A stretch of DNA of 64,000 nucleotides from Candidatus Caenarcanales bacterium (GCA_041737745.1 JBGSRC010000008.1:44459-108458); one strand, 5' to 3'. Counted from the first letter of the stretch, positions 14,183 through 63,972 are shown. The notes: generated from the letters alone by a model not told the origin. Numbers and translations are program-made.

Positions 14183-14223
14183 GAATATAAATTATATTTT
14201 AGATTCCAAATCTTTGCTAAGGC

Positions 14224-15964: not shown

Positions 15965-16714
15965 TTGGCAGCTACTACACATATGAACTCCATAAAGTTT
16001 TTGGTTTCCAATCAACCTCTAGTTCAGAGATCTGTTTTTTTGAATGCAGACCACTATCTAAGGCAAAGACAGTCAGAACAAAACTTCACAATTGCAAATT
16101 TGCCTAGTCTACTGGCTAGTGAAAAAGAACTTAAAAGAATGATTCTCGAGCAACTGCAAGGTGTTGACGGCAATACACCGATCCAGTTTTCGCCAGAATT
16201 CCACAATTTTCTGCACAATGCTGGTATATCCAGATTTATTCGAAAAGCTGGTCTGCCAAAGCTACTACCGGAAGAGTATATATATATCAAGCTCAGTACT
16301 TTAGTTCATCGCAGCGAAGGGATTTACAGTTTGGATTTTGAAAAACTCAAAAGCGCTTTTGCCTATTTTGCCAACAAATCTGAACAAACCAAAAGATCTG
16401 ATGCCATGGATAGGTTCCATCTTCATAATTTCGTTGGCGCCAAAAAAGTAAAAGAGCACTACAAAGCAGCCGGTCATGTCCAAGATTTATTCGGTGCGCT
16501 TTATAAGCTGCTTGTCGCAAAAAATACAAATGTCGGTCTTGAACTGAAAATGCTCGAGCCAAACCTTTTGCAAAAGCTAAAACCGATTATCACAGACCCA
16601 GCTAAGCCCTTTGATGGTCTACAAGTCGACATAGTACGTTTCTTTCTAGCCCAAGAGAAGCTAGAAGCAACAAAAACCCCCTCTACAACCCTAAAGAATA
16701 TAGATCCGGTCTGA
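15965..16714 (+). CDS. Hypothetical protein
   Basis: 249-aa ORF with no recognisable motif; convergent with and overlapping aguB by 32 nt. Confidence 0.4.
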   Translation: MAATTHMNSIKFLVSNQPLVQRSVFLNADHYLRQRQSEQNFTIANLPSLLASEKELKRMILEQLQGVDGNTPIQFSPEFHNFLHNAGISRFIRKAGLPKLLPEEYIYIKLSTLVHRSEGIYSLDFEKLKSAFAYFANKSEQTKRSDAMDRFHLHNFVGAKKVKEHYKAAGHVQDLFGALYKLLVAKNTNVGLELKMLEPNLLQKLKPIITDPAKPFDGLQVDIVRFFLAQEKLEATKTPSTTLKNIDPV

Positions 16715-17516
16715 GATCTCTCCTAAAGGGCCATTCGTGCTGATATCGCTTATTTTCGCTCAGGTCTAGAGTCACCAAAGCTATCCCTTCAAGGTCATTC
16801 ATGATGGCTAGCTCTCCCCCAAAGGGGCCATAAGCGCAGCTTGAACCCCAATACTGACTTTCGCCTTCTCTTCCGACTCTATTGGTGGCAAGCACAGGTA
16901 TGCAATTGGTGATGCTGTGTGCTCTATGCACGGTGAGCCAAGCTTGTCTATAAAGCTCTCGGTCTGTTTCGCTGTCATGGGGTACCCAGCCGATCGCTGT
17001 CGGATAGACCAAAAAATCGGCGCCAGCAAGAGCCATACTACGTGCTGCTTCGGGGAACCATTGGTCCCAGCAGATCAGCAGTCCTATTTTGCCGATGGAA
17101 GTCTGGATTGGTTTTAGTGCGTTTTGGCCTTGCCGGAAATAATACTTTTCTTCAAATCCCGGATCTTGGGGGATATGCGTTTTCCGGTACTTGCCCGCTA
17201 TTGACCCGTCTCTTTCTATTATTAGTGCAGTGTTGTAGTAGGCTCCTGTGTTTGAGTCCAGCTCGAAGATTGAGATCACAATTAGTATATTCAGCTCGCT
17301 CGCTAGTTTTGAATAGAGCTCTGAGCTTGGACCCGGTATAGTCTCGGCTAGCTTGAAGTTTTCGGGGTTTTGTTTTTGGCAAAAATAGGGATGATCGTGC
17401 AGTTCGGGCAGTATGACAAGATCTGCTCCTTGCTTTTTTGCTTGGGTGATCAGCTCTGAGCAGGAGCCCGCTTGGCTTTCTGGGAAGGATTTTTGAATGA
17501 GGGCTATTTGAGGCAT
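16683..17516 (-). CDS. aguB: N-carbamoylputrescine amidase (carbon-nitrogen hydrolase family)
   Basis: CN-hydrolase catalytic triad context 'ILPEL' (Glu), 'KTHIP' (Lys) and 'LICWDQWFPEAAR' (Cys), the latter characteristic of AguB; 277 aa. Confidence 0.8.
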   Translation of the reverse strand: MPQIALIQKSFPESQAGSCSELITQAKKQGADLVILPELHDHPYFCQKQNPENFKLAETIPGPSSELYSKLASELNILIVISIFELDSNTGAYYNTALIIERDGSIAGKYRKTHIPQDPGFEEKYYFRQGQNALKPIQTSIGKIGLLICWDQWFPEAARSMALAGADFLVYPTAIGWVPHDSETDRELYRQAWLTVHRAHSITNCIPVLATNRVGREGESQYWGSSCAYGPFGGELAIMNDLEGIALVTLDLSENKRYQHEWPFRRDLRPDLYSLGL

Positions 17517-17600: not shown

Positions 17601-19877
17601 ATGATTTTCGACCTAGACCTGATCAAAAACTTCTACCAGCAACTCCCAAGCAAGATATCTAAGCTCCGTCAAAGTCACCTTAAAGCTCTGACCCTCACCG
17701 AAAAGATTCTTTTTGCTCACCTAGACGCAGATCAGCCGCTGACGCTAGAGAGAGGCGTAACCTACGGCGAGTTTAAGCCAGACAGAGTGGCCATGCAAGA
17801 CGCCACCGCGCAAATGGCCTTGCTCCAGTTCATGAGCGCTGGCATGGAAAAAGTGGCAGTTCCCAGTACAGTGCACTGCGATCATTTGATTCAAGCGGAA
17901 GTAGGCGCAAAACAAGATCTAGCCTCAGCTGGCCAGCAAAACGCCGAAGTCTACGATTTTCTGGCCTCAGTCTCCAACAAATACGGTCTCGGCTTCTGGA
18001 AGCCCGGCTCAGGGATTATTCACCAAGTTGTCCTCGAAAACTATGCCTTCCCCGGCGGCCTGATGATCGGCACAGACTCACATACCCCCAATGCTGGCGG
18101 CTTAGGAATGCTCGCAATCGGCGTAGGTGGAGCAGACGCAGTCGATGCAATGGTCGGCATGAGTTGGGAACTGAAAGCGCCAAAAATAACCGGCGTTCAC
18201 CTCAAAGGAAAGCTGTCTGGTTGGGCTTCACCAAAAGATATAATCCTAGTCTTGGCCGGTATCCTCACCGTCAAAGGCGGCACAGGACATGTTATCGAAT
18301 ATTTCGGTGAAGGGACAAGCTCACTCAGTTGCACCGGCAAAGCAACTATCTGCAATATGGGCGCCGAGATCGGAGCAACTACTTCTGTTTTCCCCTATGA
18401 CGAGCGGATGGCCAGTTACTTGCAGGCAACAGAAAGAAGCGAACTAGCTAGCTTAGCCGAACAAGTCAAAGAGCACCTGATAGCTGATCCGGAAGTGCTC
18501 GCCAGTCCTCAAGACTATTACGATCGGGTGATCGAGATCGATCTGAGCGCCCTAGAGCCCCACATCAATGGTCCTTTTACGCCCGATAAAGCCTGGAAGC
18601 TCTCTCAGTTCGCCCAAGCCGTCAAGGATAACGATTATCCGGTAGAGCTGAAAGTAGGCCTAATCGGCAGCTGCACCAACTCCAGTTACGAAGACCTTGA
18701 CCGCACAGCTAGTTTAGCCAGCCAAGCCGAAAAACATGGTCTGAAAGCGAAAGCGCAGCTCACGATCACCCCAGGCTCAGAGCAGATCCGGGCGACTATA
18801 GAGCGTGATGGCCAGTTGGCGCAGTTTGAGCGGGTGGGAGCACTTGTGCTTGCCAATGCCTGCGGTCCCTGTATTGGCCAATGGAAACGCCATGATGTAG
18901 CCAAGGGTGAGCGCAACTCGATCATCACTAGCTTCAACCGCAACTTCGCTTCGCGCAATGATTCTAATCCGCAAACCCATGCTTTCGTCGCTGGTCCAGA
19001 GCTAGTGATGGCTTTTGCCTTGGCTGGTTCACTCAGCTTCAATCCGATCACCGATGATTTGCTGGATGCTGAGGGTCAGCCCTTCAAGTTAACTCCGCCG
19101 ATTGGCCGCGAATTGCCAGTCCAAGGCTTTGACCGAGGCGAAGAGGGCTTTACCGCTCCTGCTAGCGATGGCCGTTCCGTGAAGCTTTCGATAGACCCCA
19201 AGAGTGAGCGTTTGCAGCTTTTGGCTCCTTTCAGTGCTTGGGAAGGTACTGATCTAGAGGGCTTATTGCTTCTCGCCAAGATCGCCGGCAAATGCACCAC
19301 CGATCATATCTCTATGGCTGGTCCATGGCTCAGATACAGAGGACATCTGGATAATATCTCCGATAATCTCTTTATCGGCGCCACAAATCATTTCAATGGT
19401 CAGATCAACGAGGTGAAAAACCAGCTTTCTGGTGAGTATGACGCTATTCCCAAAACAGCTCGGGATTACAAGAGCAAGGGACATGGTTGGATAGTTGTCG
19501 GTGATGAAAATTATGGCGAAGGCTCTAGTCGCGAGCATGCAGCGATGGAGCCACGCTGGTTGGGTTGCAGAGCTATAGTCGTCAAATCGTTTGCCCGCAT
19601 TCATGAGACCAACCTCAAGAAGCAGGGGATATTGCCGCTCACTTTCGCCAATCCAGCCGATTATGATCGAATTCAGGAAGCTGATCAGATTTCTATTCGG
19701 GGTTTATTGGATTTCCAGCCGGGCAAATCTTTGCAGATGGTCTTGAAGCATGCTGATTCGACTGAGGATACTATTGAGCTTAAGCACACTTTCAATGCTA
19801 AACAGATTGCGTGGTTTGTTGCTGGTAGCGCTTTGAATTTGATTGCTGCTAAGGCTAAAAGCAATCAGGTGGCTTGA
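17601..19877 (+). CDS. acnA: Aconitate hydratase (mitochondrial-type / AcnA-family, 758 aa)
   Basis: Aconitase motifs 'VHCDHLI', '[13 protein letters not shown]', '[12 protein letters not shown]', '[10 protein letters not shown]', '[11 protein letters not shown]' and '[15 protein letters not shown]'. Confidence 0.9.
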
Positions 19878-44392: not shown

Positions 44393-45531
44393 TTTTAATT
44401 TTTTTATATTTCTTCGCTGCGCTCAGCTTAGCCATCTGGATCTTCTATTTGCTACGGATCCGCGAGTCTATTCGCCAAGACATTCCCCTCACTAGTTCTG
44501 AGATCATTGGCCAGCCGAGCCTCTCAATCTTGATCCCGGCCTATAACGAAGAGCAAAATATCTCTACTATCCTTAGTAGCTGCCTATTTACGCTCAAAGA
44601 CTACAAGTATCTCTACGAAATCTTAGTTCTAGACGACAATTCGCAAGATAAGACCACTGCTGAACTGGAAAGTTTCAAGCGAGCTCATCCCAGCCTCAAT
44701 TTGAAGCATTGGGTGGGTACTGAAACCCCTGCTGGTTGGACGGGGAAAAATTGGGCTTGCGCTCAGCTTTCTCAGAGAGCAACTGGTGATTATTTATTGT
44801 TTCTGGACGCCGATGTGCGTTTGCTGGCCGGAGGATTGGAGCTTGCTCTCTCTTATGCTCAAAAAAATCAAAGTGCTCTTTTGAGTGGCACACCGGATTT
44901 GCTCTGCGAGCATTGGTCAGAGATCTTGGTGCAGCCTTTGCTCGTTGCTGGGGCTAGGTCTCATTTTAATTTTGAGCGAGTGAACGATCCCTTGGCAGAA
45001 GAGGCTTTTGCTTCTGGGCCTTTTATGCTTTTTGAGCGAGGGGCATATTTTGCTTCTGGCGGTCATGAGGCTGTGGCTGCAGAGATTGTGGAAGATGTTT
45101 CTCTTTCCAAGCTTTTCAAGTCTTTGGGTCTTCGAGTGGCTTTGGTGGATGCCAGCAAGGTTTATCAGCTCCAGATGTACAGTTCTTTTGGGCAGCTTTG
45201 GGAGGGGTGGACTAAAAACGTTCATTTGGCTTTTGGGCGAAAATTTGAGGTTACGTCGCTTTATGCTTTGGTTCAGCTTTTCACCAATCTGGCTCCTTTT
45301 GGTCTTTTGGTTGGGGCTGTGGTGTTTAAGAGTTGGGTTGTTTTTGGGGTGAGTTTATTTTGTTTTTGGGCGCAGGGATATATTTTTGGTCTTGTTGCGC
45401 CGAGGTATTGGTTTTATTTTTGGGTGAGTCCTATTGGTTCTTTGATTGTTTTTGCTATTTTTCTGGGATCTATTTGGAAGACTGAGACGGGCTTGGGTTG
45501 GACATGGCGAGGCAGGCAGTTGAGGTTGTAG
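44389..45531 (+). CDS. Family 2 glycosyltransferase with C-terminal membrane domain
   Basis: GT-A fold motifs 'LSILIPAYNEE', 'VLDDNSQDKT', 'FLDADV' (DxD), and multiple C-terminal TM helices; 380 aa. Confidence 0.75.
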   Translation: MILIFLYFFAALSLAIWIFYLLRIRESIRQDIPLTSSEIIGQPSLSILIPAYNEEQNISTILSSCLFTLKDYKYLYEILVLDDNSQDKTTAELESFKRAHPSLNLKHWVGTETPAGWTGKNWACAQLSQRATGDYLLFLDADVRLLAGGLELALSYAQKNQSALLSGTPDLLCEHWSEILVQPLLVAGARSHFNFERVNDPLAEEAFASGPFMLFERGAYFASGGHEAVAAEIVEDVSLSKLFKSLGLRVALVDASKVYQLQMYSSFGQLWEGWTKNVHLAFGRKFEVTSLYALVQLFTNLAPFGLLVGAVVFKSWVVFGVSLFCFWAQGYIFGLVAPRYWFYFWVSPIGSLIVFAIFLGSIWKTETGLGWTWRGRQLRL

Positions 45532-45815
45532 AGGTTTTAGACTCATCCCCCCAGCCCCTTAAACCCCTCAGAGCAAGGACATTACTGAGACGGGCTTGGG
45601 TTGGACATGGCGTGGTAGGCAGTTAAGGAAAGACTGAATAACTCAATCAAGGGGGAGTTTGAGGGGGCCTTAGGTCCCCTCATAACAAATACTTCAAGTA
45701 ACCTCAAGTGACTCCAAACATTCCCTTAAGAACCAAACCAGAGTGAGACGGGCTCAAGTTGGACATGGCGAGGTAGACAATTGAGGTTCTAGAGGTTTTT
45801 ACTCATCCCCCAGCC
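45481..45815 (+). repeat. Three copies of the GT2 gene 3'-terminal segment (45481..45560 including the stop, 45583..45625, 45741..45815) interleaved with a REP/MITE unit (45645..45695)
   Basis: 'ACTGAGACGGGCTTGGGTTGGACATGGCGAGGCAGGCAGTTGAGGTT(G/C)TAGAGGTTTT(T)ACTCATCCCCC' is repeated with ~85-90% identity. Confidence 0.7.
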
Positions 45816-50830: not shown

Positions 50831-50855
50831 TGAATAAAAAAGAGCTCTAAAAAAC

Positions 50856-50927
50856 TGGGCCATGCGGGACTCGAACCTGCAACCAACTGATTAAGAGTCA
50901 GCTGCTCTACCATTGAGCTAATGACCC
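50856..50927 (-). tRNA. tRNA-Lys (anticodon CTT); CCA not encoded
   Basis: Minus-strand cloverleaf: acceptor 'gggtcat'/'atggccc', D-arm 'agctcaatggtagagc', anticodon stem-loop 'gctga-ctCTTaa-tcagt', T-arm 'ggttcgagtcc'. Confidence 0.8.
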
Positions 50928-51108
50928 ACTCAAGGCTAGTGAGTATAGCCCAAAATTTAGAAACTGTGTCCGACAAAAAATGAAAGCTTGAGCTGCTTGC
51001 CTGCAGCATTAAAGATTCTTTACTAGTTTAGACCGGTCAGGCATCACCTTAATATTCTCTTCACATGATAAATTTATTAATAGAGAAATTTATTAATTTT
51101 AGATTAAG

Positions 51109-52455
51109 TTGTCTATCGCTAACACAACACCAGTTCAAGGCAAGGGAGGAGTCTTTCGGCAATTAGCCAAAATGACCCAACTCTTTACCCTGCCTAGTAG
51201 TGAAAGCAAGGCCACACTCTTCACTAAAATCCCCATAGCCGTTTCGGTTACCTGTTTTTTGCCTATACTACTTGGGCTCATTGCCAGAAAACAAGTAGAC
51301 AAGCGCATGCTCGAAGTCTATGAAAACCCTGATAGTGAGCAAGCCAAACTTTCTCCTCTCACTACTTTTCTGTCGAAGATGTATACGGTCGCTTTTGCTG
51401 TGACTGCTCTTGGTGGCGCCGTCAATGGTCTTGCCTATGCCTCTTTTTGCCGAATGTTCTCTTACATGGCCATGTTCGTTGGGGCTTTGTTCAATATGCG
51501 CAACGAGTTTCGGGTGATCAACAACACAAACCAAGCAATTGAGCTCAGCAATGATATCCACAAAGCACAAAAGAAAGACTTTGGGAGCAAAGACACCCGT
51601 CACATCGAAGAAATTAAAAAAGAGCTCCAAGAAACTATCCAAAAAGCCAATCAAGGAGTGGGTTGGCTAGCCTTCTTCTCGCGTTTCTTGTACCCGATTT
51701 TCCTCGCTCTCACTTTCTTTTCCAATGTCAATCAACTGCTCGGTAAAGGCCACAAAAATATACGTTGCTTAGTGCCTGAAGGTGCCACCAATGGTCAGAT
51801 GTGGCAAAACATCAAAAAGAACTTTTGGCCAAATGCCCGTAAAGAATTTCAGACTGGCGGTATGTTCAGCCGAAAACTGCTTTCTGGGAAACACTGGGGG
51901 GAAGTCTTTGGGGCTATTGGTACTGGTTTTAAGACTGGTAAGTGGCAGGGTCTTTCGGCCAGTGGTTTCGATGCTAGTTTTATCTTAATGAACATGTGGT
52001 CTAGAGTCTTGATGGCTGTGGGTACTATGGTTGGGATGGTGGGTCTAGGTGGTCCTAAGGCTTTCTTGGTGGGGACACCTCTCTTTGAAAAATCCGATCC
52101 TGAGGTGCGGGCAATCAGTGAACAGGCCAAAGGCAAGAAGAAGTTTTTCAAGGGGCTTTTTGATACATCACTTTTGATCCAAAACCTCAGTCTCTTTTCG
52201 ATGGGGACCTCATCGGTGATGATGGGCTTCAATGCTGAGTATGCAAAGAACTTCGGGACTATTCCGTCTACTCTGCAGAAAATCGGGGGTGGCTTGTTGG
52301 GTGCTTCACCTGTTTTCGATCAGATGAATCTCTTTGTGGTTGGGGCAATTTCTAAGCTACTTAGCAACACTGTTTTGCAGCTTGCTAATGCTTTTGGTTT
52401 AGCGAAGAAGTTTGTGGATAAAGCTGGACCTATTGCTAGGGCTGTGAAGGTTTAG
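51109..52455 (+). CDS. Hypothetical membrane protein with bilobed hydrophobic segments
   Basis: 448 aa. Long paired hydrophobic stretches ('IPIAVSVTCFLPILLGLIA', 'YTVAFAVTALGGAVNGLAYASFCRMFSYMAMFVGALF') and Gly-rich C-terminal region. TTG start in the track (ATG at 51172 is an alternative). Confidence 0.45.
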   Translation: MSIANTTPVQGKGGVFRQLAKMTQLFTLPSSESKATLFTKIPIAVSVTCFLPILLGLIARKQVDKRMLEVYENPDSEQAKLSPLTTFLSKMYTVAFAVTALGGAVNGLAYASFCRMFSYMAMFVGALFNMRNEFRVINNTNQAIELSNDIHKAQKKDFGSKDTRHIEEIKKELQETIQKANQGVGWLAFFSRFLYPIFLALTFFSNVNQLLGKGHKNIRCLVPEGATNGQMWQNIKKNFWPNARKEFQTGGMFSRKLLSGKHWGEVFGAIGTGFKTGKWQGLSASGFDASFILMNMWSRVLMAVGTMVGMVGLGGPKAFLVGTPLFEKSDPEVRAISEQAKGKKKFFKGLFDTSLLIQNLSLFSMGTSSVMMGFNAEYAKNFGTIPSTLQKIGGGLLGASPVFDQMNLFVVGAISKLLSNTVLQLANAFGLAKKFVDKAGPIARAVKV

Positions 52456-52488
52456 AGTGGCTTGTTGCTTTGTATTTTCTATATATAT

Positions 52489-52620
52489 AAGGGGAGTTTG
52501 AGGGGCAAAGCCCCTTTTGCGAAAGTTTTTTACCACAATCGATCTTAGGGTTTTGAGCTCACTTAAGGTTACTTGAAATATTTACCATGAGGGGACCTAC
52601 GGCCCCCTCAAACTCCCCCT
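52489..52620. mobile_element. Complete ~130-bp MITE-like element with terminal inverted repeats GGGGAGTTTGAGGGG / CCCCTCAAACTCCCC
   Basis: Left end 'AAGGGGAGTTTGAGGGGCAAAGCCCC' and right end 'GAGGGGACCTACGGCCCCCTCAAACTCCCCCT'. The internal segment 'CACTTAAGGTT..ATGAGGGG' is shared with the copies at ~56960 and ~57570. Confidence 0.6.
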
Positions 52621-52831
52621 GACAATTTGAAACGTAAGCCTAAAGTGATCTCAAAGTTTGGTTTTATTGCTGGAGGTTATGGGTTTTTCAGTGTTTCTTT
52701 AAGGTTAGAGAAATTCATCTAAACGGGGCTCCGCCCACAAGCACCTTTTCTTAGAGAGGGGAAAACAAGGCAAGATTTCAGTATTTTAAAGCAAGAGCTT
52801 GATTAACATTAGTGAGCTCAAAATCATCTCC

Positions 52832-53159: not shown

Positions 53160-53855
53160 ATGATTAAGCCAGTCACACATAAAAATCTTGCAAATAATAA
53201 TTTTTGGCCAAATCTACGCCTAAACCTCCTCAATCCTCGAAAAATAGGATTGGCTCTCTCGATGAGCGCCCTCTGGTCTTTGATCGTCGAGCGGAAGAAG
53301 CAAGGCCAAGAGAGCCTGCCTGATCATGACCACACCTTCAACAATCTTCTTACTGGTGTTTTGGCCACAGCGAGCACGATTTTTTTAGATGCTCTATTGC
53401 CTCACCTTGGAAAAAATCTGCAATTTAGAGCTTCTCCGGAATGGCGGGCGGCTGGAGGAAACATAGGGAAATTCGTTAGCTCTGTTTTTACTCCAAACAT
53501 TGTCGCTTTGATCTTGGGCACTGCTTCTCTGGTTGGCATAGTTGATGGTTTGGCTAGCAAGGCTGCTGAGGGCGTTGATCCTAAGCGGGCTGGGGTGATT
53601 GATTTGTTGGGGACAATCAGTAAAATACCGGTTATTATCGGCTTTGCGCGGCTTTTGAGTGGTCAGAGAGGGTCCATGCTTTCGCTCTTGACCAATTTTT
53701 CTTGTCCTTGTTGTGCCTTGCCTTTTTGTGGGGTGGAGCTAGCCAATATCACCAAGTCTTTGGGGGATCTGATGGTGAAGTCTTTCAAGCATCAAGATCT
53801 CGGTGAGATGTACTTCAAGGAAGGCTCAAAAAACCCAGGAAACAGTGGTGGGTAA
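53160..53855 (+). CDS. Hypothetical membrane protein
   Basis: 231 aa with hydrophobic helices ('LTGVLATASTIFLDALL', 'IVALILGTASLVGIVDGLA'); no motif. Confidence 0.4.
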   Translation: MIKPVTHKNLANNNFWPNLRLNLLNPRKIGLALSMSALWSLIVERKKQGQESLPDHDHTFNNLLTGVLATASTIFLDALLPHLGKNLQFRASPEWRAAGGNIGKFVSSVFTPNIVALILGTASLVGIVDGLASKAAEGVDPKRAGVIDLLGTISKIPVIIGFARLLSGQRGSMLSLLTNFSCPCCALPFCGVELANITKSLGDLMVKSFKHQDLGEMYFKEGSKNPGNSGG

Positions 53856-53925
53856 AGCCATTGTGGAAGCGCTGAAAACTCAAAACTCTTTAAGATCTTC
53901 TCGTTTTTTCTTACTTTATTAAAAT

Positions 53926-53955
53926 TTAAGGGGAGTTTGAGGGGCTAGAGTAAAT
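53926..53955. repeat. Solo MITE end 'AAGGGGAGTTTGAGGGGCTAGAG'
   Basis: Same terminal motif as the 52489 element. Confidence 0.5.
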
Positions 53956-55538: not shown

Positions 55539-56888
55539 TTAGCTCTTCACCGCTCTCGAACCGAACAAACTCCAAGCCGTCACCCTATCGATATTTACTT
55601 TCACCAGATCACCGGCCTGATCCCCTTCTAGCACTGGAAATAAACATAATTTCCCTCCACGGGTCCGACCCTGCCAGAGATCGGCGTTTCTAGAATTAAC
55701 CCCCTCGATCAAAATCTCTTCAGAACTTCCCTCATAGAGCAAAAGAGCACGTTTTTCGACTGTCTCATCTACAAGAGCGTTCAAATAGCGCAAACGCTCC
55801 CGCTTGGCCTCCTCAGGGACACGCAAAGCATCATCTTTCTCCCACTCGCCGCCTTTTGTTCCACGCCGTGGTGAGTACATTGCTGTGATACATGAATCGA
55901 ACCCAATGCGCTCAACAGCCGCGCAGGTATTCAAAAACTGACGCTCGGTTTCCCCGGGGAAGCCGACGATGAAATCACTGGTGACAGTTGCCCTAGGCAT
56001 AGCGCTACGCATAGCCCCGACCATCTCTTCATATTTTGAGACTGTATAGATTCTGGCCATCCGTCTGAGCGTTTCGTCGTCACCGGCTTGCATCGGTATA
56101 TGAAAGTGCTCGCAGACCTTGGGGAGCGCTGCCACTGTCTCGATCAGCTCTTGGTCAACGTGATGAGGATGACCGGTCAGAAAACGAATTCGCTCTATCC
56201 CTTCGATCTGATGGACGTCTCTGAGCAGGCTAGCCAGCGTTGAGTTTATATCTTGGCCATAGGCTGTCACGTTTTGGCCGAGCAGAGTCACTTCCTTGAA
56301 GCCTTCTTGAGCGAGAGTGCGCACCTCACCACAAATAAACTGGCTGCTCCGGCTCTTTTCGCGCCCACGGACTTGCGGGACTATGCAGTAAGTACAGTTG
56401 AAATCGCAACCGAGGATCACATTCACCCAAGCCGTGACGCTGGTTTGTCTAATGATTGGGGTTTCGGGGATTTCTTCTGGGAGATTTTCATAGAGTTCGC
56501 AGACTGATTTTTTGTCATTTAGTACTTGAAGGACGAGATCCGGTAGACGGTGCAGGTTGTGAGTGCCGAAGACTAGGTCTATATGGGGCATTCTTTTTTG
56601 GATTGCTTGGCCTTTTTCTTGGGCGAGGCAGCCGGCTAGGCCGATCAGCATTTCTGGTTTTTGTTTTTTCAGGTCGGCCCAGCGTCCGAGGTTGCTATAG
56701 GCTCTATCGGCTGCGCCTTCGCGGATGGTGCAGGTATTGAGGATCAAGAGATCGGCGTCTTGAAGTTTTTCTGTGTTTTGGTAGCCTATTTCGGCGAGAA
56801 GCCCGAGCATGCGCTCTGAGTCGGCTTTGTTCATTTGGCAGCCATAGGTTTCTATGAAGCAGCTGCGTTTATTTGCGGTTTGGGTCAT
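55539..56888 (-). CDS. miaB: tRNA-i6A37 methylthiotransferase MiaB (radical-SAM MTTase)
   Basis: N-terminal MTTase Fe-S 'IETYGCQMNKADSE', radical-SAM 'CDFNCTYC', C-terminal TRAM domain; 449 aa. Confidence 0.85.
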   Translation of the reverse strand: MTQTANKRSCFIETYGCQMNKADSERMLGLLAEIGYQNTEKLQDADLLILNTCTIREGAADRAYSNLGRWADLKKQKPEMLIGLAGCLAQEKGQAIQKRMPHIDLVFGTHNLHRLPDLVLQVLNDKKSVCELYENLPEEIPETPIIRQTSVTAWVNVILGCDFNCTYCIVPQVRGREKSRSSQFICGEVRTLAQEGFKEVTLLGQNVTAYGQDINSTLASLLRDVHQIEGIERIRFLTGHPHHVDQELIETVAALPKVCEHFHIPMQAGDDETLRRMARIYTVSKYEEMVGAMRSAMPRATVTSDFIVGFPGETERQFLNTCAAVERIGFDSCITAMYSPRRGTKGGEWEKDDALRVPEEAKRERLRYLNALVDETVEKRALLLYEGSSEEILIEGVNSRNADLWQGRTRGGKLCLFPVLEGDQAGDLVKVNIDRVTAWSLFGSRAVKS

Positions 56889-56930
56889 GATATTTATTCA
56901 TACTATTTTAAGCTATTGGCATAGTTAGAC

Positions 56931-57023
56931 TGGTTCTCTTGTCTTTCAGTTAGCGAAGCGATTTATGAACACTTAAGGTTTTTGGAAGTAATAGCTATGA
57001 GGGGCAAACTAAGCTTGCATCAG
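56931..57023. repeat. MITE-family copy (direct repeat A) upstream of miaB
   Basis: 'TGGTTCTCTTGTCTTTCAGTTAGCGAAGCGATTTATGAACACTTAAGGTTTTTGGAAGTAATAGCTATGAGGGG' is about 90% identical to 57537..57612. Confidence 0.65.
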
Positions 57024-57247
57024 TTATTTCGAAGCATTGCTCTGAAGTCTTTGTAAGATTTTATGTTCTGCTCTTCTCTAAGGGGGGAGTTTGTGGGATC
57101 GCCGAAGGCCGAGTGCACAAAGTGCCGAGCTTTAGCCTTCATAGCCCGACTTGACACTGGAATAGACAGGGTTACTAGCAAGGTCTTTAAAGCTTTGCTT
57201 CAATTTATTGCCAAGCTGGCTTTTCCCGCCTTTAGATATAAGTCTAT

Positions 57248-57499
57248 CTAGGGGGCTTTGCGGGTTGCTCTCAGGCGCCGATCCTCTTCGTCCTGCTTGA
57301 TTACGTTGCGATTCAGATTGTCTACCAGCAACTGGGCTGTCCGATCCGCTTGCTCGCGGTTGGTTTCCTTGCGGACGTTCCCCGAGGAATCCTTGATATA
57401 CCCTTTCGGAAGAGGTTCCGTCTCTGCGAAGCTGTTCGAGTTGTTCTTTAAGTTCTGAATAAAGGCTTTCTCTATCACGATTATACCCCGTTTTCTCAA
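57248..57499 (-). CDS. Hypothetical basic 83-aa ORF bracketed by ~80-bp direct repeats (may not be a real gene)
   Basis: Lys/Arg-rich ORF lying between repeat copies 56931..57023 and 57537..57635. Confidence 0.25.
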   Translation of the reverse strand: MRKRGIIVIEKAFIQNLKNNSNSFAETEPLPKGYIKDSSGNVRKETNREQADRTAQLLVDNLNRNVIKQDEEDRRLRATRKAP

Positions 57500-57536
57500 T
57501 GTTTTCGAGTGTCGTTACAAAGGCTTCCCCTTACTT

Positions 57537-57635
57537 GGTTCTCTTATCCTCCAGTTAGCGAAGCGATTAACAACACACTTAAGGTTTTTGGAAGTAATAG
57601 CTATGAGGGACCTGCGGCTACTCAAACTCCCCGCT
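57537..57635. repeat. MITE-family copy (direct repeat B) ending in '...ATGAGGGACCTGCGGCTACTCAAACTCCCC'
   Basis: Matches 56931..57023 and the right half of the 52489 element. Confidence 0.65.
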
Positions 57636-57675
57636 TCTTAAGATCCATTGTGGTTTTAGAGGGTGACTTCCCAAA

Positions 57676-57704
57676 AAGAAAAAACCCTCGCAGAGGAGGG
57701 CTTT
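57676..57704 (-). terminator. Rho-independent-terminator-like hairpin (CCCTC-GCAGAG-GAGGG) flanked by A6 and T-run; stronger on the minus strand
   Basis: 'AAAAAACCCTCGCAGAGGAGGGCTTT'; an identical copy lies at 57921..57950. Confidence 0.45.
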
Positions 57705-57920
57705 AAACGCTTCTATTGCAAATCGAAAAGTAAGTTTGTGCCCACCCCCCTGCCCCTCCGGTGGAGGGGAGTTAATTTCTATGGGGGCTCTGCGTATCGG
57801 CCTAGCTAGGCACTCTTGCTACGCAGCCCCAAACCCCCTTCAAAAACAAGGGAAAACTAAAAATTTGCAAAAGACGTCAAAGTAATATCTCGATCCAGAT
57901 GATGCAAACTAAGTTTGCAA

Positions 57921-57950
57921 AAGAAAAAACCCTCGCAGAGGAGGGCTTTT
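57921..57950 (-). terminator. Second copy of the same terminator-like hairpin
   Basis: 'GAAAAAACCCTCGCAGAGGAGGGCTTTT'. Confidence 0.45.
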
Positions 57951-58453
57951 GGATTGAAGGAGGAACTGTATTACGAATAAATCAATCAATAATCGTCTTA
58001 ATTGTAAATAAAAACAATAAAGACTTATGTACTGATAATCACTCGAATATCTATTGAAAAAAATAATGAACTTGCAAATGTTTCACCTTAGGGTGGGTTA
58101 AACCCTAAAGATCCACAAACAAGATAATACACTAGCTGAACTAAAAAGTCATGACCTATGGGTGAAATCTTGCTAAGAGCTTTCAGGCGATCGGGCTAAG
58201 CAAAGCCGTTTCGACTGATTAGATCCAGCAAAAGACTCTCCTAGTCCTAGAAGTTACTGTCAGTCTCTATGACAAAGTCCTTTCAGGGCAGTGATCCGGC
58301 CGAAGCTGCAATAATCAAAAGTGTGTAAAGGGTTTACACGAGCCGGATTCCAGAGCCTATATCGCCAAGTCCAATACTCCACTTCTCTCGTTTGCCTTCT
58401 CAAATGAATCCCCCGAATCGGAGTCCGGTTTTTACTTTTTTTGGAGAGTATCT

Positions 58454-59023
58454 ATGGAAAATACCAATAGTCCACCCCCTCAAGTTATCCCCCCAAGCGA
58501 TAATCAAGTCCCCCAAGCAGATCAAGCAGTCTCTTGGAAAGAAGCAACCAGTATCTTAAATGAAACTATAGCCCACAGCCCAGCCCTAGAGCGCGTAGCG
58601 CAAGAACAAGGCTATCACTGCTTTGAAGAAGCTTATTTTCAGCATTACGGAAATTATCTGCAAGCGCTGAAAGCTTCTTCCTCAGACCCGCAAGCGAGAG
58701 CGATCACCGGTCAGCTGGAAGGGCTCTGGTTCGCCGGAAAATACGCTGATGCTCTGCAAGTCGCTTCTCGTTACTTTGGGAAAGTGGCTCAAACAAGCCA
58801 AGCTCCTCAAAGCCTGCAGCCCAGACACCAAAGCGGCAATGAGGGATATTTGGGGGCTTATCCCTTTCGCTCTCGCCAAGAGTACCAACAAGCTTCCCGT
58901 TCGCAAGACCCTAGAATGCGCGAAATGGCCCAAAAAGCCTGGAGAACATGGCTAACTACCTATCGCCGCGATTCTAATAATCCTCAAACCCCCTACCCAA
59001 TGGAGACTAACCCCAATGCCTAA
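58454..59023 (+). CDS. Hypothetical Pro/Gln-rich protein (candidate scaffold/cargo of the downstream HK97-fold protein)
   Basis: 189 aa, disordered Pro-rich N-terminus, Gln/Ala-rich. Overlaps the next gene by 8 nt (translational coupling). Confidence 0.4.
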   Translation: MENTNSPPPQVIPPSDNQVPQADQAVSWKEATSILNETIAHSPALERVAQEQGYHCFEEAYFQHYGNYLQALKASSSDPQARAITGQLEGLWFAGKYADALQVASRYFGKVAQTSQAPQSLQPRHQSGNEGYLGAYPFRSRQEYQQASRSQDPRMREMAQKAWRTWLTTYRRDSNNPQTPYPMETNPNA

Positions 59024-59936
59024 TATCACTCGCTCATCGTTGAGCGCTCAGTTTTCTAATCCTGTTGCCGATAAGATCCTCGAATATCTTTACGATTATC
59101 TGATCTTTGCGCCGCAATTTTTTGATGCCGAACATGGCAACCTGATCTCACAAGATCCGATGGACAAACGCCCGAAGATCTTCGATGCCTCAAAGTATGT
59201 CAAACGGGCTTATTCTCGTGGCGAGACGATCAAAATCCCCAACATACCGCGCCTCTATGCCCAAGATAAACTAGCAGACACCGAGATCACCGATCAGTCG
59301 CTAAACGTTAGCAGCGTCTCGCTCACTATCACCACCCACAAGTATGTCAGCGTGGTTTTGGAAGATTCGGCCGAGGCTTTCGACAATACAGCTATGGTCG
59401 AAGAGATGGCTAAGCGCGAAGCTCGTGCGCTTGCCGAAGCCTTTGAAGATTCGGTGATCGCTACTTTCGGTGACTTTGCCACAGTAAATGGAGGCGGAGT
59501 TGGTGATGTTTTGAGTTTCGATGATTTTGCGGTTTGGAATAGGACTTTCTTCAAGAAAGGCGTCAATCTCGATCATTCACCGGCTTGGGCTATTCTCACT
59601 CCCGAGCAGTATTCTGTATTGGCCACCACTCGTGATGAGTTCACTGTGGCTGGCGAAAAAGGGCTTGGCACCTTCAATTCTGGCCGAATCATAGAGACTC
59701 CCCATGGGATTTATGCGCTTCGTTCGAATCGTCTCAGTTCATCTGGTGGGTCTGCTACTGGTCTATGCTTTACTGAGAATGCTTTGATGTGTGCTTTTGC
59801 GATCATGCCTCGTTTCGTTGAGACTCGCGATGATCGGAAGGTTGGGATTCGTTTTTATGCTGACTTTATGGCTGGAGTGGCTAAGCTGAGAGACGAAGAA
59901 GGTATTAGGCTGAACTTTGACGCTGATAGCGTTTGA
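59016..59936 (+). CDS. HK97-fold major capsid protein / encapsulin-like shell protein
   Basis: By eye it is collinear with T. maritima encapsulin and T7 gp10 over the E-loop/P-domain region. The matches are 'LEDSAEAFDNTAMVEEMAKREARALAEAFEDSVIATFG' to '...LDLWELDNLE..VAEFEDEVIFRG', and 'SGRIIETPHGIYAL' to 'GGKIITTPRIEDAL'. 306 aa. Confidence 0.5.
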   Translation: MPNITRSSLSAQFSNPVADKILEYLYDYLIFAPQFFDAEHGNLISQDPMDKRPKIFDASKYVKRAYSRGETIKIPNIPRLYAQDKLADTEITDQSLNVSSVSLTITTHKYVSVVLEDSAEAFDNTAMVEEMAKREARALAEAFEDSVIATFGDFATVNGGGVGDVLSFDDFAVWNRTFFKKGVNLDHSPAWAILTPEQYSVLATTRDEFTVAGEKGLGTFNSGRIIETPHGIYALRSNRLSSSGGSATGLCFTENALMCAFAIMPRFVETRDDRKVGIRFYADFMAGVAKLRDEEGIRLNFDADSV

Positions 59937-60089
59937 TGTTGATGCAATTACTTGATTGGTTTTATTAAGCATAGGAGCCTCTTAAAGAATTTACGGGGCC
60001 AAAGCCCCAAGCCGCCTTTCTTAATTTGAAGAACAACCCACTTTTTGAAGTAACTAAAATCCCCAACTAAAAAAAAGAGAAAAAAATAA

Positions 60090-60893
60090 ATGATCGACTT
60101 TGAAAAATTCGTCGGCGATCTGGAAGCCCTCAAAAACCATGGAGGTTCCTCCAAACGCCTTAACCACTTCGACCCTCGTGACCAAAAAAAGCTAAAACAA
60201 GCCTCCCAAGATCTCGTCCTCCTGAATAATACCGGCAGACGCCTCTTCATCACCAATCAACTCGGCTTTGTAAATTATTTCAATGTCCAACCCGATGGAG
60301 TCAAGCACCTAGTCGATCTGATCAGACCCTATTGGCTCGGCCTCCCCAATACCTTTGAACAACCGCTCTTCGATACAGCCAGTCAAGTACAAAGCTTCAT
60401 CACCGAACGCCTAGTGGCCGACTTGGTCGAGATGGTCTCCTCTTGGCGCCTGAACTTTGACCGGAATCCTGTCCCAATCAGAAAAAAAGGCCTAAGAAGC
60501 TTCAAGGGCTACAAATCTCGCCCCTACCGCGAATGGTTCAAAGATCACTTTGCCGAGAGTACCTATACCTACGATGTCGTGATCGCTCTAGCCGAAGACA
60601 AACCGCTCACTATCCCCCGCAAAACTGAGCTTTGGGGCATGGGCGGAGAGCTGCTGAGCGAAGAAGAAGAGCTACTGGTCAGGCAAGATCTCTCGGCTGA
60701 TCCTAAACCAAAGCTGCTCCAGTTCATCGAATCTGTCCCAAGCGATCTCTGGGAAATAAAATCTCAAGCTCGCACTGGCCTAGAAGAGCTAGAGCTGAGA
60801 GGAAAAATGCAACAGCTCGAAAAAGAAATAGAAAGCCTGAAAAATCTAAAAACATCCCTCACCAAACAAAAAGGAAAAGAAAATAATGTCTGA
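60090..60893 (+). CDS. Hypothetical protein with C-terminal coiled coil
   Basis: 267 aa; C-terminus 'ELELRGKMQQLEKEIESLKNLKTSL'. No motif. Confidence 0.4.
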   Translation: MIDFEKFVGDLEALKNHGGSSKRLNHFDPRDQKKLKQASQDLVLLNNTGRRLFITNQLGFVNYFNVQPDGVKHLVDLIRPYWLGLPNTFEQPLFDTASQVQSFITERLVADLVEMVSSWRLNFDRNPVPIRKKGLRSFKGYKSRPYREWFKDHFAESTYTYDVVIALAEDKPLTIPRKTELWGMGGELLSEEEELLVRQDLSADPKPKLLQFIESVPSDLWEIKSQARTGLEELELRGKMQQLEKEIESLKNLKTSLTKQKGKENNV

Positions 60894-61257
60894 AATAGCA
60901 AACATGATTTTGTGCAATGGCACAGTAGATCTCACCAATGGCAGTAGTGGCGTGACTTTTAAGGTCGATCGGGCGGGAGATCTGATACTGGGCGAATGTT
61001 TTGTCGAACTTTTGACCGGAGTAGTAGGCACAACTACTGCCCCTATTGTCGGCATTTCTATAGCTGGTGCTGAGCAGGGTTCAGTTACTGCCCCCAATGC
61101 TAGACCGGCTGGCGATTTGCTGCGTTTTGCGCCCACTACACAAAGAGGGCCTGCTATCAGGCTTTCAGCCGGTGAGACAGTTCGAGTCTTCACCAAGACC
61201 GCTGCTGCTGGGGGCGTTCCTGCTGGCAGTTTGCGCGTGTTTCTTGCCTTGAAGTGA
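60886..61257 (+). CDS. Hypothetical small Gly/Ala/Thr-rich beta-type protein (possible phage decoration/fiber-like)
   Basis: 123 aa; overlaps the upstream gene by 8 nt. Composition typical of small beta-sandwich phage structural proteins. Confidence 0.35.
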   Translation: MSEIANMILCNGTVDLTNGSSGVTFKVDRAGDLILGECFVELLTGVVGTTTAPIVGISIAGAEQGSVTAPNARPAGDLLRFAPTTQRGPAIRLSAGETVRVFTKTAAAGGVPAGSLRVFLALK

Positions 61258-61269
61258 TTTCTTAAAACT

Positions 61270-61956
61270 ATGCCATCACAAATACTTGAAATAGTGAATC
61301 AAGCCCTAGCGAGGCTAGGGGAAACGCCTCTGAGTGCAGCCGAATATGACTTTGGTTTGGAGCGACATCAGCTCATTTTGCGCGAGGCCGTTCGTGAGTT
61401 TTGGGAGAAGACCATCAATCTAGCCAAAGACGATCTGAAATATTATTTCGAGCTGAGCACTGTCACTGGGCAGGGTCTTTACGCTCTTGGTTTTGAGCCT
61501 CTTGAGCTTGCTAGCACTCAGCTTTTTCTGCTCGATCCAAGCGCAGGGCAAGATAGACTTTTAGGCCGAGTCTTAGAAAAAGACTTGCTGGTGGATACTG
61601 GGGGAGATCTAGCAAATCTTCCTTCCGGCAAGCCTAGAGATTGGTTTGTGGCTCATACCAGTTTGGCCGGTGAGAGTAGGCTCGGTTTTGCTCCAATTCC
61701 GGATAATATTTACACGATTCGGATCTATAGGCAGCTGGCTCCGGCGGCTCTTAGTGCTAGCTCTGTCTTGATGGCCAATCGTTTGGCTCTAAGTGCTATG
61801 CGTCATTATTTGGAGTGGGTTTTGGTTCGTGAGGAGGGATTTTCTTCTGCTCCAGATTTTGAGCGTCGTTTTGAGGAGGCTTGGCATGAGTACATTGGGC
61901 GGAGCGCATCTTCAGAAAAGCGTAATCTTTTTCAATGGCCTTATCAGCAGAGCTAG
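61270..61956 (+). CDS. Hypothetical protein with N-terminus resembling podovirus tail tubular protein A (T7 gp11-like adaptor)
   Basis: 'IVNQALARLGETPLSAAEYD' versus T7 gp11 'VNDILASIGEPPVSTLEGD' (recalled from memory); 228 aa. Confidence 0.35.
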   Translation: MPSQILEIVNQALARLGETPLSAAEYDFGLERHQLILREAVREFWEKTINLAKDDLKYYFELSTVTGQGLYALGFEPLELASTQLFLLDPSAGQDRLLGRVLEKDLLVDTGGDLANLPSGKPRDWFVAHTSLAGESRLGFAPIPDNIYTIRIYRQLAPAALSASSVLMANRLALSAMRHYLEWVLVREEGFSSAPDFERRFEEAWHEYIGRSASSEKRNLFQWPYQQS

Positions 61957-62100
61957 AGTCCCCAAACCCCTATTCAATTTGAGCGACTTAACAATATATA
62001 GCGTGGCTTTTTAGAGCTGTTCAGCGTTTCATGAAGAACAGGTGGAGTTTGAGGGCGCTAGCCCTCAAGGAAATAAACTTCACTAACCGCAAGTGAGCCC
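61957..62100. repeat. 143-bp direct repeat, copy 1 (starts right after the stop of 61270..61956)
   Basis: About 93% identical to 62162..62304; contains 'GTCCCCAAACCCC' and 'GGTGGAGTTTGAGGGCGCTAGCCCTCAAGG'. Confidence 0.75.
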
Positions 62101-62161
62101 TAAAATCCCACCCCCAGCCCCTCCCTCAGGGAGGGGAGAAACTTTTTACTATGGGGACTTC

Positions 62162-62304
62162 TTCCCCAAACCCCTATTCAATTTGAGCGACTTATCAATA
62201 TATAGCGTGGCTTTTTAGAGTTATTCAGCGATTCATGAAGAACAGGTGGAGTTTGAGGGCGCTAGCCCTTAAGGAAATAAACTTCACTAACCGACAGTGT
62301 AAGC
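62162..62304. repeat. 143-bp direct repeat, copy 2 (ends at the stop of the recombinase-like gene)
   Basis: See copy 1. The 61-bp spacer carries the palindrome CCCCTCCCTCAGGGAGGGG. Confidence 0.75.
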
Positions 62305-63165
62305 TCAGCCTTCTAAAACCTCAAAGACCTTCTCGTGAATTCTTCTCAATACCCCAAGATCAAACTTGCTTTTCTTAACCAGAGAGGCAAGTTTTTTCCT
62401 ACCGACCATCTCCCGCGCAAAGAACAATCCATCTTTCTCAATCAGTGAACGCTCAGCATAATCTTGCAGATCTACCGGTGAAAGATCTAAGCCAAAGATT
62501 TTTTTCGCAAGTCGCCTAACAGCCGTAGCCAAATAAACTGGCTCAGTCTTCTCTCCCTTCCCCTTGCAAAAGACGAACTCGGCACTTTTAGCCTGCTTTC
62601 TAGATTCTTCTATCAAATCCACCAAATTTGGATCAATTGGCAAAACGCGCATCCGACCCTTCCGCCCAAGCGTGATATGCGATTTCCGACCCAGACTGAG
62701 ATCTAACCAGCGCAATTGGGAGATCTCCTCAAGCGAGGCCCCAGTAAAAGCCAATAGCGCTAAAAGCAATCGCTGAGCCGGCTTGAGTGTTTCATTGTCT
62801 GCTAGCAAAAGCTCCAGATTGGCTGCTGAGAGGCTTTGCGCTTTGGGAGATTGTTTGGCTTCTTTTGCCTTAAAGCGCCAAGGTAAAGCTAGACGTTGAT
62901 CTATGCTCGCTAGCTTCTTTTCCCCCAGCCAGAGCAGAAAACATCTGATATTTGTAGCTCTTCGCTGCCCGATTCGACGACTGCAGTCGCCTACTAAATC
63001 TAGAATCTTTTCGCTATTTAGAATACTAAAATCGAGTTTGCCTGAGCTGGCCGTTGCTGCGAAGAGAAAGTTTAAGTCGAGTTGGTAGAGTTTGGCGCTG
63101 CTCTCTAGGAGGGCTTTGTCTAAAATAAAATCATCTATAAACCCTTGGAATTCGCTCTCAGTCAT
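62305..63165 (-). CDS. Tyrosine-recombinase (XerC/XerD/phage-integrase) homolog with all catalytic residues substituted (predicted inactive)
   Basis: Collinear with XerD: a SAM-like N-domain ('RRATNIRCFLLWL'), then 'LLALLAFTGASLEEISQLRWLDL' aligned to 'LEVLYATGLRVSELVGL' (Arg to Ala/Ser), 'GRKGRMRVLPIDPNLVDLI' aligned to 'GKGNKERLVPLGEEAVYWL', 'LSPVDLQDYAERSL' aligned to 'LSPHVLRHAFATHL', and 'MVGRKKLASLVKKSKFD' aligned to 'LLGHSDLSTTQIYTH' (Tyr to Phe). 286 aa. Confidence 0.5.
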   Translation of the reverse strand: MTESEFQGFIDDFILDKALLESSAKLYQLDLNFLFAATASSGKLDFSILNSEKILDLVGDCSRRIGQRRATNIRCFLLWLGEKKLASIDQRLALPWRFKAKEAKQSPKAQSLSAANLELLLADNETLKPAQRLLLALLAFTGASLEEISQLRWLDLSLGRKSHITLGRKGRMRVLPIDPNLVDLIEESRKQAKSAEFVFCKGKGEKTEPVYLATAVRRLAKKIFGLDLSPVDLQDYAERSLIEKDGLFFAREMVGRKKLASLVKKSKFDLGVLRRIHEKVFEVLEG

Positions 63166-63458
63166 CGGATGCCGTATTCAGCTAGTCTCTTAACCACATC
63201 TTTTTTGGAAAAAGAACAACCGTTGATTGCCTCAAAGGCTTTTTCTTCCGTTTGCTCTTGCAGAGCAAGAAGCTCCAAACCAAATTCTTGACAAGCAGCT
63301 CTCAGCGCCTGATAGTATTGATCGAAGAGCGCTTTTTTGATCGGTTCCGGCACAGTCTCAAATATGCCGATGGTCTCGTCCCAGAGAAGATCTGTTCTAA
63401 ACTTTACGATCGCCGCCAGAACCAGTTCTTGCGATGTTTGTTTGTTTTGCTCCATCAC
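63162..63458 (-). CDS. Hypothetical protein, translationally coupled upstream of the recombinase-like gene
   Basis: 98 aa; 4-nt overlap with 62305..63165. Confidence 0.4.
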   Translation of the reverse strand: MMEQNKQTSQELVLAAIVKFRTDLLWDETIGIFETVPEPIKKALFDQYYQALRAACQEFGLELLALQEQTEEKAFEAINGCSFSKKDVVKRLAEYGIR

Positions 63459-63462
63459 CGGC

Positions 63463-63972
63463 TCAGCTCAAACTCCGGCTTAATACAGCCATCTCCAGAG
63501 CAGCCAACATCGCTTCGCGCCCTTTATTTCCCATAGAGCCGCCAGCCCTAGCTAAGGCTTGTTCGAGATCGTTGGTGGTCAGCACGCCCATCCCTATTGG
63601 GACACCGGAAGCAAGACCAATCTCTCCCAGTGCTGGAAAGACAAATGACGCAATGTATTGATCATGATCTGTTTCGCCCTTAATGATCGTACCAAGGCAG
63701 ACGAGAGCATCGTATTTGCCGCTTTCAGCGAGCTTTTTGGCCAGAAAAGGCAACTCATAAGAACCTGGCACAAAATAAAATTTGATGTTTTCAGACTTCC
63801 CTTCCAGTTCAGTGAAACAATCAAAAGCCCCCTGAAGAAGCTTGGCGTTCACTGCTTCGTTCCAGCGAGCCATCAGCACAGCAACCTTCAGATCGCGAGC
63901 AGAAGGATTTTCGCTAGAAGGTCTAGGCGGACTAAAACCCATTAGACATTCACCAGCTTGCGGCCAGAGCAA
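63463..63972 (-). CDS. ribH: 6,7-dimethyl-8-ribityllumazine synthase
   Basis: 'KVAVLMARWNEAVNAKLLQGA', 'FVPGSYELPF' and 'GETDHDQYIASFV' motifs. Probable start at the internal Met ('MGFSPP', ~63942). Confidence 0.8.
   Translation of the reverse strand: MLWPQAGECLMGFSPPRPSSENPSARDLKVAVLMARWNEAVNAKLLQGAFDCFTELEGKSENIKFYFVPGSYELPFLAKKLAESGKYDALVCLGTIIKGETDHDQYIASFVFPALGEIGLASGVPIGMGVLTTNDLEQALARAGGSMGNKGREAMLAALEMAVLSRSLS

Follow-up and report, generated by a model that had tools for sequence, protein, structure and literature searches.

A stretch of 64,000 nt from Candidatus Caenarcanales bacterium (GCA_041737745.1 JBGSRC010000008.1:44459-108458) carries, in a setting of housekeeping genes, a block of five small genes that includes a phage-type capsid gene and a phage-type adaptor gene, and this raises the question of whether such a block is what is left of a phage, a capsid-based system kept in use by bacteria, or an encapsulin-like nanocompartment. 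We refer to the whole stretch as the window; all positions are those of the whole window, and absences of other phage genes are stated for this window, which is part of a 198-kb contig. The first-pass annotation had described five co-oriented, partly overlapping open reading frames (ORFs), and our ORF list returns them intact and at exactly the same coordinates (Table 1), together covering approximately 3.5 kb with 8-nt overlaps at 59016-59023 and 60886-60893. It had proposed either a decayed podovirus-like prophage or a domesticated capsid-based system, with an encapsulin-like nanocompartment as one possibility. Here, we find that the region is probably a cryptic prophage remnant, truncated but with its ORFs still intact, and that it would be a piece of the head-neck operon of a short-tailed phage. 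We put the probability of this reading at roughly 60%.

Results

Capsid and adaptor genes

The block was compared with approximately 55 related phage-like loci (designated L0xx), from which 1188 ORFs of at least 120 amino acids (aa) were taken. Among complete relatives the nearest is CAZOPR010000015, an uncultured podophage-like contig of 33 kb that was assigned to a Brachyspira metagenome-assembled genome (MAG) and contributes loci L002, L003 and L006.

The second gene of the block encodes a 306-aa protein in which HK97-fold capsid/encapsulin-like segments had been noted, and the capsid assignment holds. The protein has two family matches, PF25209 (Phage_capsid_4) in Pfam (7.7e-8; 33.4 bits, which exceeds the curated cut-off, 27) and the major head protein family PHROG 267 (7.2e-19). 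A profile of 33 sequences (A5), combining the close relatives with distant homologues from IMG/VR and metagenomes, matches approximately 17 phage capsids in the PDB at E <= 1, at least 14 of them at E < 1e-6. These include A4 gp33 (9jwb; 1e-33), 8zdh (1e-21), 8e16 (5e-21), the P-SSP7 capsid (2xd8; 7e-13) and T7 gp10A (2xvr; 2e-11). Entry 9jwb is the capsid gp33 of the Anabaena podophage A4, for which the HK97 topology is stated (PMC12002296). Because the AlphaFold model of the window protein, made from a seven-sequence alignment, reached a predicted local distance difference test (pLDDT) score of only 33.4, too low for fold searching, we infer its HK97 fold from the sequence relationship to these solved capsids. 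The protein belongs to the T7-supergroup podophage capsid family; it lacks a delta domain, and no protease gene adjoins its gene.

Two segments of the same protein had been read as encapsulin-like, one as an E-loop and one as a motif match; the motif match has no support, and the E-loop reading is doubtful. No encapsulin family in Pfam, including Linocin_M18, matches the protein at E <= 1, and no encapsulin chain is among the PDB-sequence matches of the capsid family profile at E <= 1. The proposed E-loop segment, AEAFEDSVI, lies in a predicted long helix (residues 125-142) that, in a low-confidence model, is more likely the spine helix.

Relatives of this capsid are rare: only seven were found among 5.8 billion clustered proteins, and tblastn with the capsid and with the adaptor against GenBank phages (50,697 records) gave no match. 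Scans of metagenomes and IMG/VR returned distant capsids only, at 21-30% identity; close relatives were found in neither IMG/VR nor GenBank phages, and a scan of a genome-contig collection, to which the window's own genome does not belong, returned the L002 contig alone.

The fifth gene encodes a 228-aa protein that matches PF24175 (SU10_adaptor) at 8e-8 (33.4 bits; cut-off, 27), and the match spans residues 5-212 of the protein and positions 3-185 of the 194 in the profile. Homologues are found at the same position in L004 (38% identity) and L002 (226 aa; 27%, 1e-20). The earlier description of this gene as T7 gp11-like is correct at the level of the class, whereas a direct match to T7 gp11 is lacking. 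There is no other adaptor or tail-tube family for the protein in Pfam at E <= 1 and no sequence match in the PDB, and a profile of three adaptor homologues finds nothing among PDB sequences at E <= 10. The link to T7 gp11 is instead made because the T7 gp11 domain plan is reported to be shared by the adaptors of SU10 (PMC9509320) and A4 (gp32; PMC12002296). The window contains no partner portal or nozzle gene for the adaptor. By its two recognizable components, the source phage would be of an uncharacterised lineage that combines a T7-supergroup-type capsid with an adaptor of the SU10/T7-gp11 class.

Some smaller features were observed in and next to the capsid gene. An antisense ORF of 90 aa (59294-59566, minus strand) has apparent homologues in all related loci because the capsid sequence is conserved, and it is not a gene. 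The 153-nt spacer between the capsid gene and the next ORF (59937-60089) is variable among relatives, and the same gap holds one or two additional small genes in L051 (3226-3955, there on the minus strand), L052 (1870-2187) and L060 (474-839). The gap could be a hotspot of insertion or a site of attenuation, and a G+C-rich hairpin in the window copy, GGGGCCAAAGCCCC, may serve as an attenuator.

Gene order in related loci

The five window genes are collinear with a contiguous internal block of L002/L003. The L002 order starts with a sigma-70-type factor, TerS (phrog_51) and TerL (phrog_2, 1e-25; PF03237), continues with a 695-aa portal-sized protein (weak P22_portal match, E = 0.04), a 64-aa ORF, a 229-aa scaffold-position protein and the capsid, which is 38-39% identical to the window capsid, and then proceeds through proteins of 251, 150 and 226 aa, the last being the adaptor, to larger proteins that include an internal virion protein (phrog_342). 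Given this collinearity and homology, the five window genes, as far as their sequences tell, come as one unbroken piece from the interior of a podophage head-neck operon.

The remaining parts of such an operon were searched for and not found. The 1188 ORFs of the related loci have partners in the window for the five block genes only, in agreement with the first-pass annotation, which had noted the lack of a portal and a terminase. None of the related genes that would complete a prophage (terminase, portal, tail, lysis) is present in the window, and tblastn with proteins of the related elements detected no pseudogene traces in the flanks, including those of portal or terminase.

The L002 sigma-70-type factor (4255-4902; Sigma70_r2 and r4) is encoded just upstream of TerS and TerL. 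Its presence suggests that late transcription is specific to the phage; the window, with no sigma factor of this type, would lack such transcription. A scan found no promoter-like site directly upstream of 58454, and overall counts did not exceed those of shuffled controls.

Among the incomplete relatives, L004 and L051 are informative on what surrounds the block. Ahead of its scaffold gene, L004 carries a membrane-protein gene and aroE, at a distance of approximately 2 kb, and L051 an NnrU-family gene, at approximately 1 kb; neither has a portal or terminase gene just upstream. Downstream of the adaptor, L004 retains homologues of the next two L002 genes (272 and 232 aa), so the window copy looks more truncated, and L004 carries further phage-derived genes up to the contig end. 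Five close capsids (window, L004, L051, L053 and L055) are 68-75% identical on contigs of 35-56% G+C, with neighbouring genes at 31-45%.

Two side observations concern these loci. L004 (8087-9459) and L051 (1123-2268) share a left end consisting of a divergent small gene, an 82/88-aa gene and the scaffold gene; the small genes (71 and 101 aa) are 50% identical over 42 aa, and the 82/88-aa genes are 45% identical. These boundary genes were not found in the window by tblastn. L004 also has three membrane-protein genes on the minus strand (13171-14241, 16424-17347 and 18456-18860), of which two or more are paralogues and the third runs off the contig. Downstream of the adaptor they are interleaved with the phage-derived ORFs on the opposite strand, and the operon is broken up while the ORFs are kept intact.

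Other genes of the block

The 189-aa protein encoded ahead of the capsid had been suggested to be a scaffold or a cargo. It has homologues in L004 (37% identity, 4e-26), L051 and L053, and a profile of the family built without L002 aligns with the 229-aa scaffold-position protein of L002 at an hhalign probability of 91% (E = 1.1e-6); the 212-aa L004 protein matches the same L002 protein directly at 1.6e-6. The window protein is therefore a homologue of a phage scaffold-position gene product and not a cargo, and the Pfam scan revealed no enzyme domain in it. The name scaffold itself follows the position of the gene, and neither the protein nor its homologues have a Pfam, PHROG or usable PDB match. 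A ribosome-binding site, GGAGAG, precedes the ATG of the gene.

Between capsid and adaptor are two conserved genes for proteins of 267 and 123 aa, for which searches of Pfam, PHROG and PDB with the proteins and their homologues returned nothing usable. The 267-aa protein is one of a rare family (19 found in 1.84 billion representatives) with conserved motifs RPYWLG, ISExLVxDL and STYTY, and it matches the 251-aa protein of L002 at 4e-9; a word-indexed homologue search with it returned the query alone. From an alignment of 17 sequences AlphaFold gave a model with a pLDDT of 87.7 and a predicted template modelling (pTM) score of 0.74, comprising an alpha/beta domain and a 48-residue C-terminal helix, and this model has no structural relative in the PDB or BFVD. 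Homologues of the 123-aa protein are present in L004 (32% identity, 2e-23) and in L002 (150 aa; 2.4e-5). By position between capsid and adaptor, our guess is that the two could be minor capsid, cement or neck proteins; the positional comparison is with the A4 cement proteins and SU10 gp10, the latter for the 123-aa protein. One further member of the 267-aa family, in L060 (927-2222, P0019), has 431 aa and a long tandem insertion of 'PKELQxIEQL'-type repeats in its C-terminal helical part.

Flanking sequences and recombinase homologue

The module had been described as bounded by 143-bp direct repeats, and this is not confirmed. The sole long repeat near it is a 137-nt pair, both copies of which lie to the right, between the adaptor and recombinase genes. 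The pair is a local tandem duplication and does not flank the module; its 67-nt spacer carries one copy of a short repeat that recurs in intergenic DNA at many places in the window. When the left flank (56889-58453) was compared with the right one (61957-63470), the best direct match had 19 nt (E = 0.23), and there is no att-like pair.

On the right, the gene facing the module on the opposite strand encodes a 286-aa tyrosine-recombinase homologue with matches to PF00589 (4e-7; 30.4 bits, just above the threshold of 27.1) and phrog_1 (4e-10). When the protein is aligned pairwise to XerD of E. coli, at 23% identity and with the TG, LSP and LG motifs as anchors, all six catalytic positions are replaced: R148 by S144, K172 by R168, H244 by V231, R247 by Q234, H270 by R256 and Y279 by K265. 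The protein is predicted to be catalytically dead, which upholds the earlier description of a dead integrase. A word-indexed search of 5.8 billion proteins found no homologue besides the query, and the protein is not present in the related elements. A 98-aa ORF had been noted as coupled to this gene; it has the position of an excisionase gene and does overlap the recombinase start by 4 nt. The 3' end of the recombinase gene faces the repeats and the module, which would correspond to the lambda-type vegetative order of late genes, attP, int and xis.

Table 1 Features of the block and its flanks (positions in the window)
Feature	Coordinates	Strand	Basis or remarks
MiaB-type methylthiotransferase gene, left neighbour	55539-56888		UPF0004, radical SAM and TRAM domains
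Left spacer	56889-58453		1.56 kb from the miaB-type gene to the module; mostly non-coding, local and genome-wide short repeats
189-aa scaffold-like protein	58454-59023	+	Homologous to the gene directly upstream of the capsid in related elements
306-aa phage major capsid protein, predicted HK97-fold, T7-supergroup podophage type	59016-59936	+	PF25209, phrog_267, PDB-sequence profile matches
G+C-rich hairpin	59994-60009		In the 153-nt gap 3' of the capsid gene; putative function
267-aa conserved head-module protein	60090-60893	+	Modelled N-terminal alpha/beta domain, long C-terminal helix 218-265
123-aa small protein	60886-61257	+	Same-position homologues in L004 and L002
228-aa head-to-tail adaptor, podophage SU10 gp11/T7 gp11 class	61270-61956	+	PF24175
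137-nt direct repeat pair	61959-62095 and 62163-62299		95% identical, 204 nt apart, 67-nt spacer; right of the module
286-aa tyrosine-recombinase homologue, predicted catalytically dead	62305-63165	-	PF00589, phrog_1
98-aa ORF, excisionase position	63162-63458	-	Overlaps the recombinase start by 4 nt
ribH, lumazine synthase, right neighbour	63463-63972		PF00885, 3e-46

The block does not differ in composition from its surroundings (48% G+C against 47% for the window), and the remaining window genes are housekeeping genes, ClpB, ThrRS, RecN and PEP carboxylase among others. The cyanobacterial HIP1 motif is absent. The left spacer contains one unsupported ORF of 83 aa (57248-57499, minus strand) and two local duplicate pairs (56931-57003/57536-57609 and 57674-57704/57919-57949). 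Most of the small repeats around the module are due to short, palindrome-containing repeat families that occur in many intergenic regions of the window, at approximately 2347, 13267, 28860, 38945, 52461-52746, 53900-53945, 57602-57632, 57730-57841 and 62126-62175. One family has a CCCCTCAAACTCCCC / GGGGAGTTTGAGGGG unit and another a '...TATGGGG...CCCCAAACCCCT' unit, and they look like REP- (repetitive extragenic palindromic) or MITE-type (miniature inverted-repeat transposable element) elements.

Farther from the module, a repeat-rich zone surrounds a tRNA-Lys gene (50855-50928). It consists of three copies of approximately 60 nt in 45479-45799 (spacings 103 and 158 nt), a 138-nt direct pair (45929-46066/50436-50573; 4.5 kb apart, 76% identical) and a 69-nt inverted pair (45650-45718/52552-52620; 87% complementary, 6.8 kb apart). 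Two hydrophobic window proteins, of 448 aa (51109-52455) and 231 aa (53160-53855), have no Pfam or NCBIfam family.

Discussion

Of the two explanations offered by the first-pass annotation, the decayed podovirus-like prophage is well supported by the capsid family, the adaptor class and the collinearity of all five genes with a podophage-like contig. The position of the fragment in a housekeeping stretch, from the miaB-type gene to ribH, adjoining a dead recombinase and repeat-rich non-coding DNA, also speaks for a remnant, as do the missing promoter-like site, the missing sigma factor and the longer version of the block in L004. Under this reading deletion would have removed everything else that the prophage had, from terminase, portal and nozzle genes to those for ejection proteins, fibres, lysis and regulation and possibly for a phage sigma factor. 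The fragment would be unable to package DNA or to make a tail and, if transcribed, would give at most portal-less procapsid-like shells. The ORFs could have stayed intact through recent truncation or through selection.

Several observations weigh against simple decay. Judged by the lengths of homologues, each of the five ORFs is complete (189 aa in the window and 197-229 aa in homologues, and likewise 306 and 305-311, 267 and 251-269, 123 and 117-150, and 228 and 225-237), and the coupled starts are kept. The window capsid is no further from the outgroup capsid of L002 than are the capsids of the four close relatives (39% against 37-40%), and no relaxed constraint is visible. In both relatives with a readable left flank, L004 and L051, the genes before the scaffold gene are host-type or non-phage ones, and such a recurrent portal-less left boundary is not predicted by independent random decay. 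The ratio of nonsynonymous to synonymous substitution rates (dN/dS) is uninformative, with synonymous sites saturated in every pair.

Some of these observations fit an exapted head module, a portal-less, self-contained operon of scaffold, capsid, two accessory proteins and adaptor kept by selection in several bacterial lineages. We regard this as unlikely, although it is the alternative that fares best. Intact ORFs without rate acceleration fit it, as do capsids that remain 68-75% identical across contigs of such different G+C while their neighbours are at 31-45%, a scaffold gene that in the window, L004 and L051 alike has neither portal nor terminase gene before it, the boundary genes that L004 and L051 have in common, the phage-derived genes that stay intact in L004 despite the interleaved membrane-protein genes, and the fact that close relatives occur in neither IMG/VR nor GenBank phages. 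However, the copies occupy separate chromosomal loci, with miaB and ribH as neighbours in one, aroE and a membrane-protein gene in another and nnrU in a third, and show no sign of vertical inheritance. The window and L004 do not end alike on the right, and the left-boundary genes conserved in L004 and L051 are not in the window. The divergence could all date from a stage as active phages, an adaptor without a portal has no obvious role, and none of the proteins matches a defence-system family. Given the different loci, the differing right boundaries and the saturated synonymous sites, the pattern may stem from a gene order unusual for a phage, or from evolution at the phage stage, and not from domestication. 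The more specific proposal, that the window copy is a domesticated module of a lineage reduced to a portal-less, terminase-less head module useful to divergent hosts, is a shade more doubtful; such a module might build shells, or might poison or otherwise interfere with the assembly of related infecting phages.

It is improbable that the block is part of a larger functional element reaching beyond the window, either a dispersed system of the gene-transfer-agent (GTA) type or a prophage with an unusual gene order. The portal-less left boundary in three elements fits such an arrangement, the window covers 64 kb of a 198-kb contig, and L004 does continue with phage-derived genes to its contig end. 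On the other hand, the block stops at the adaptor and is followed by the housekeeping gene ribH, the 58 kb upstream contain no related phage gene, and in the nearest complete relative TerL, portal, scaffold and capsid follow one another in canonical order.

Still less credible is a helper-dependent, satellite-like island that would bring its own capsid and adaptor and take other parts from a helper phage. The island is suitably small (approximately 6.5 kb) and an integrase-family gene adjoins the capsid and adaptor genes, but the recombinase is predicted to be dead, its gene is not conserved in the related elements, att-like repeats do not flank the module, and there is no replication, regulatory, small-terminase or portal gene between 56889 and 63462. 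Capsid-forming phage satellites of the capsid-forming phage-inducible chromosomal island (cf-PICI) type have an active integrase, a replication module and their own portal and small terminase. This type was considered and rejected: the integrase is dead, and none of the other defining genes is present in 56889-63462.

Finally, an encapsulin-type nanocompartment that would carry the 189-aa protein as its cargo, suggested at first by a shell protein of probable HK97 fold with no portal gene nearby, is very hard to credit, as it failed on each feature tested: the shell protein lacks encapsulin matches, the supposed cargo is homologous to a phage scaffold-position gene, a tail adaptor gene (PF24175) stands in the same co-oriented block, and the nearest complete relative is a phage.

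As a prophage remnant the region is ordinary, and the main value of the analysis is a corrected annotation, with phage scaffold, capsid and adaptor genes and a dead recombinase. The lineage behind it is a rare and uncharacterised one of podophages, with seven capsid relatives among 5.8 billion proteins and none in cultured phages, and its head module includes a conserved protein of 250-270 aa with a confident model and no structural relative. Should the portal-less boundary seen in three independent elements represent true retention, and not coincidence or an unusual gene order, it would be a domestication of capsid genes beyond the known cases of GTAs and encapsulins.

Relation to known systems

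Encapsulins (families 1-4) would resemble the window block only in that the shell fold is presumably HK97 and that no portal gene adjoins the shell gene; there is no relationship at the level of sequence profiles, and the window operon includes a scaffold homologue and a tail adaptor. The adaptor gp11 of Kuravirus SU10 is closer, since the window adaptor matches PF24175 over nearly its full length and above the cut-off, although the similarity is low and the fibre and nozzle partner genes are not in the window. With the head-neck modules of the T7 supergroup (A4 gp33/gp32; T7 gp9, gp10 and gp11; P-SSP7), the block shares a separate scaffold-position gene before the capsid and an adaptor close by. 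It differs from them in two extra conserved genes (267 and 123 aa) between capsid and adaptor and in having no portal, nozzle or ejection-protein gene.

CAZOPR010000015 has the same five-gene order, with a capsid 38% and an adaptor 27% identical to those of the window, but in addition to those five genes it encodes TerS and TerL, a sigma factor and a portal-sized protein, and it continues downstream with an extended set of internal-virion and tail genes; the window lacks all of these. Compared with cryptic prophage remnants, the window is tidier than random decay would leave it, given that its ORFs are intact and collinear and that its portal-less left boundary is shared with relatives. In other respects it is like them, with no terminase, portal, tail or lysis genes, a truncated set of structural genes, an inactivated integrase-family gene and a housekeeping setting.

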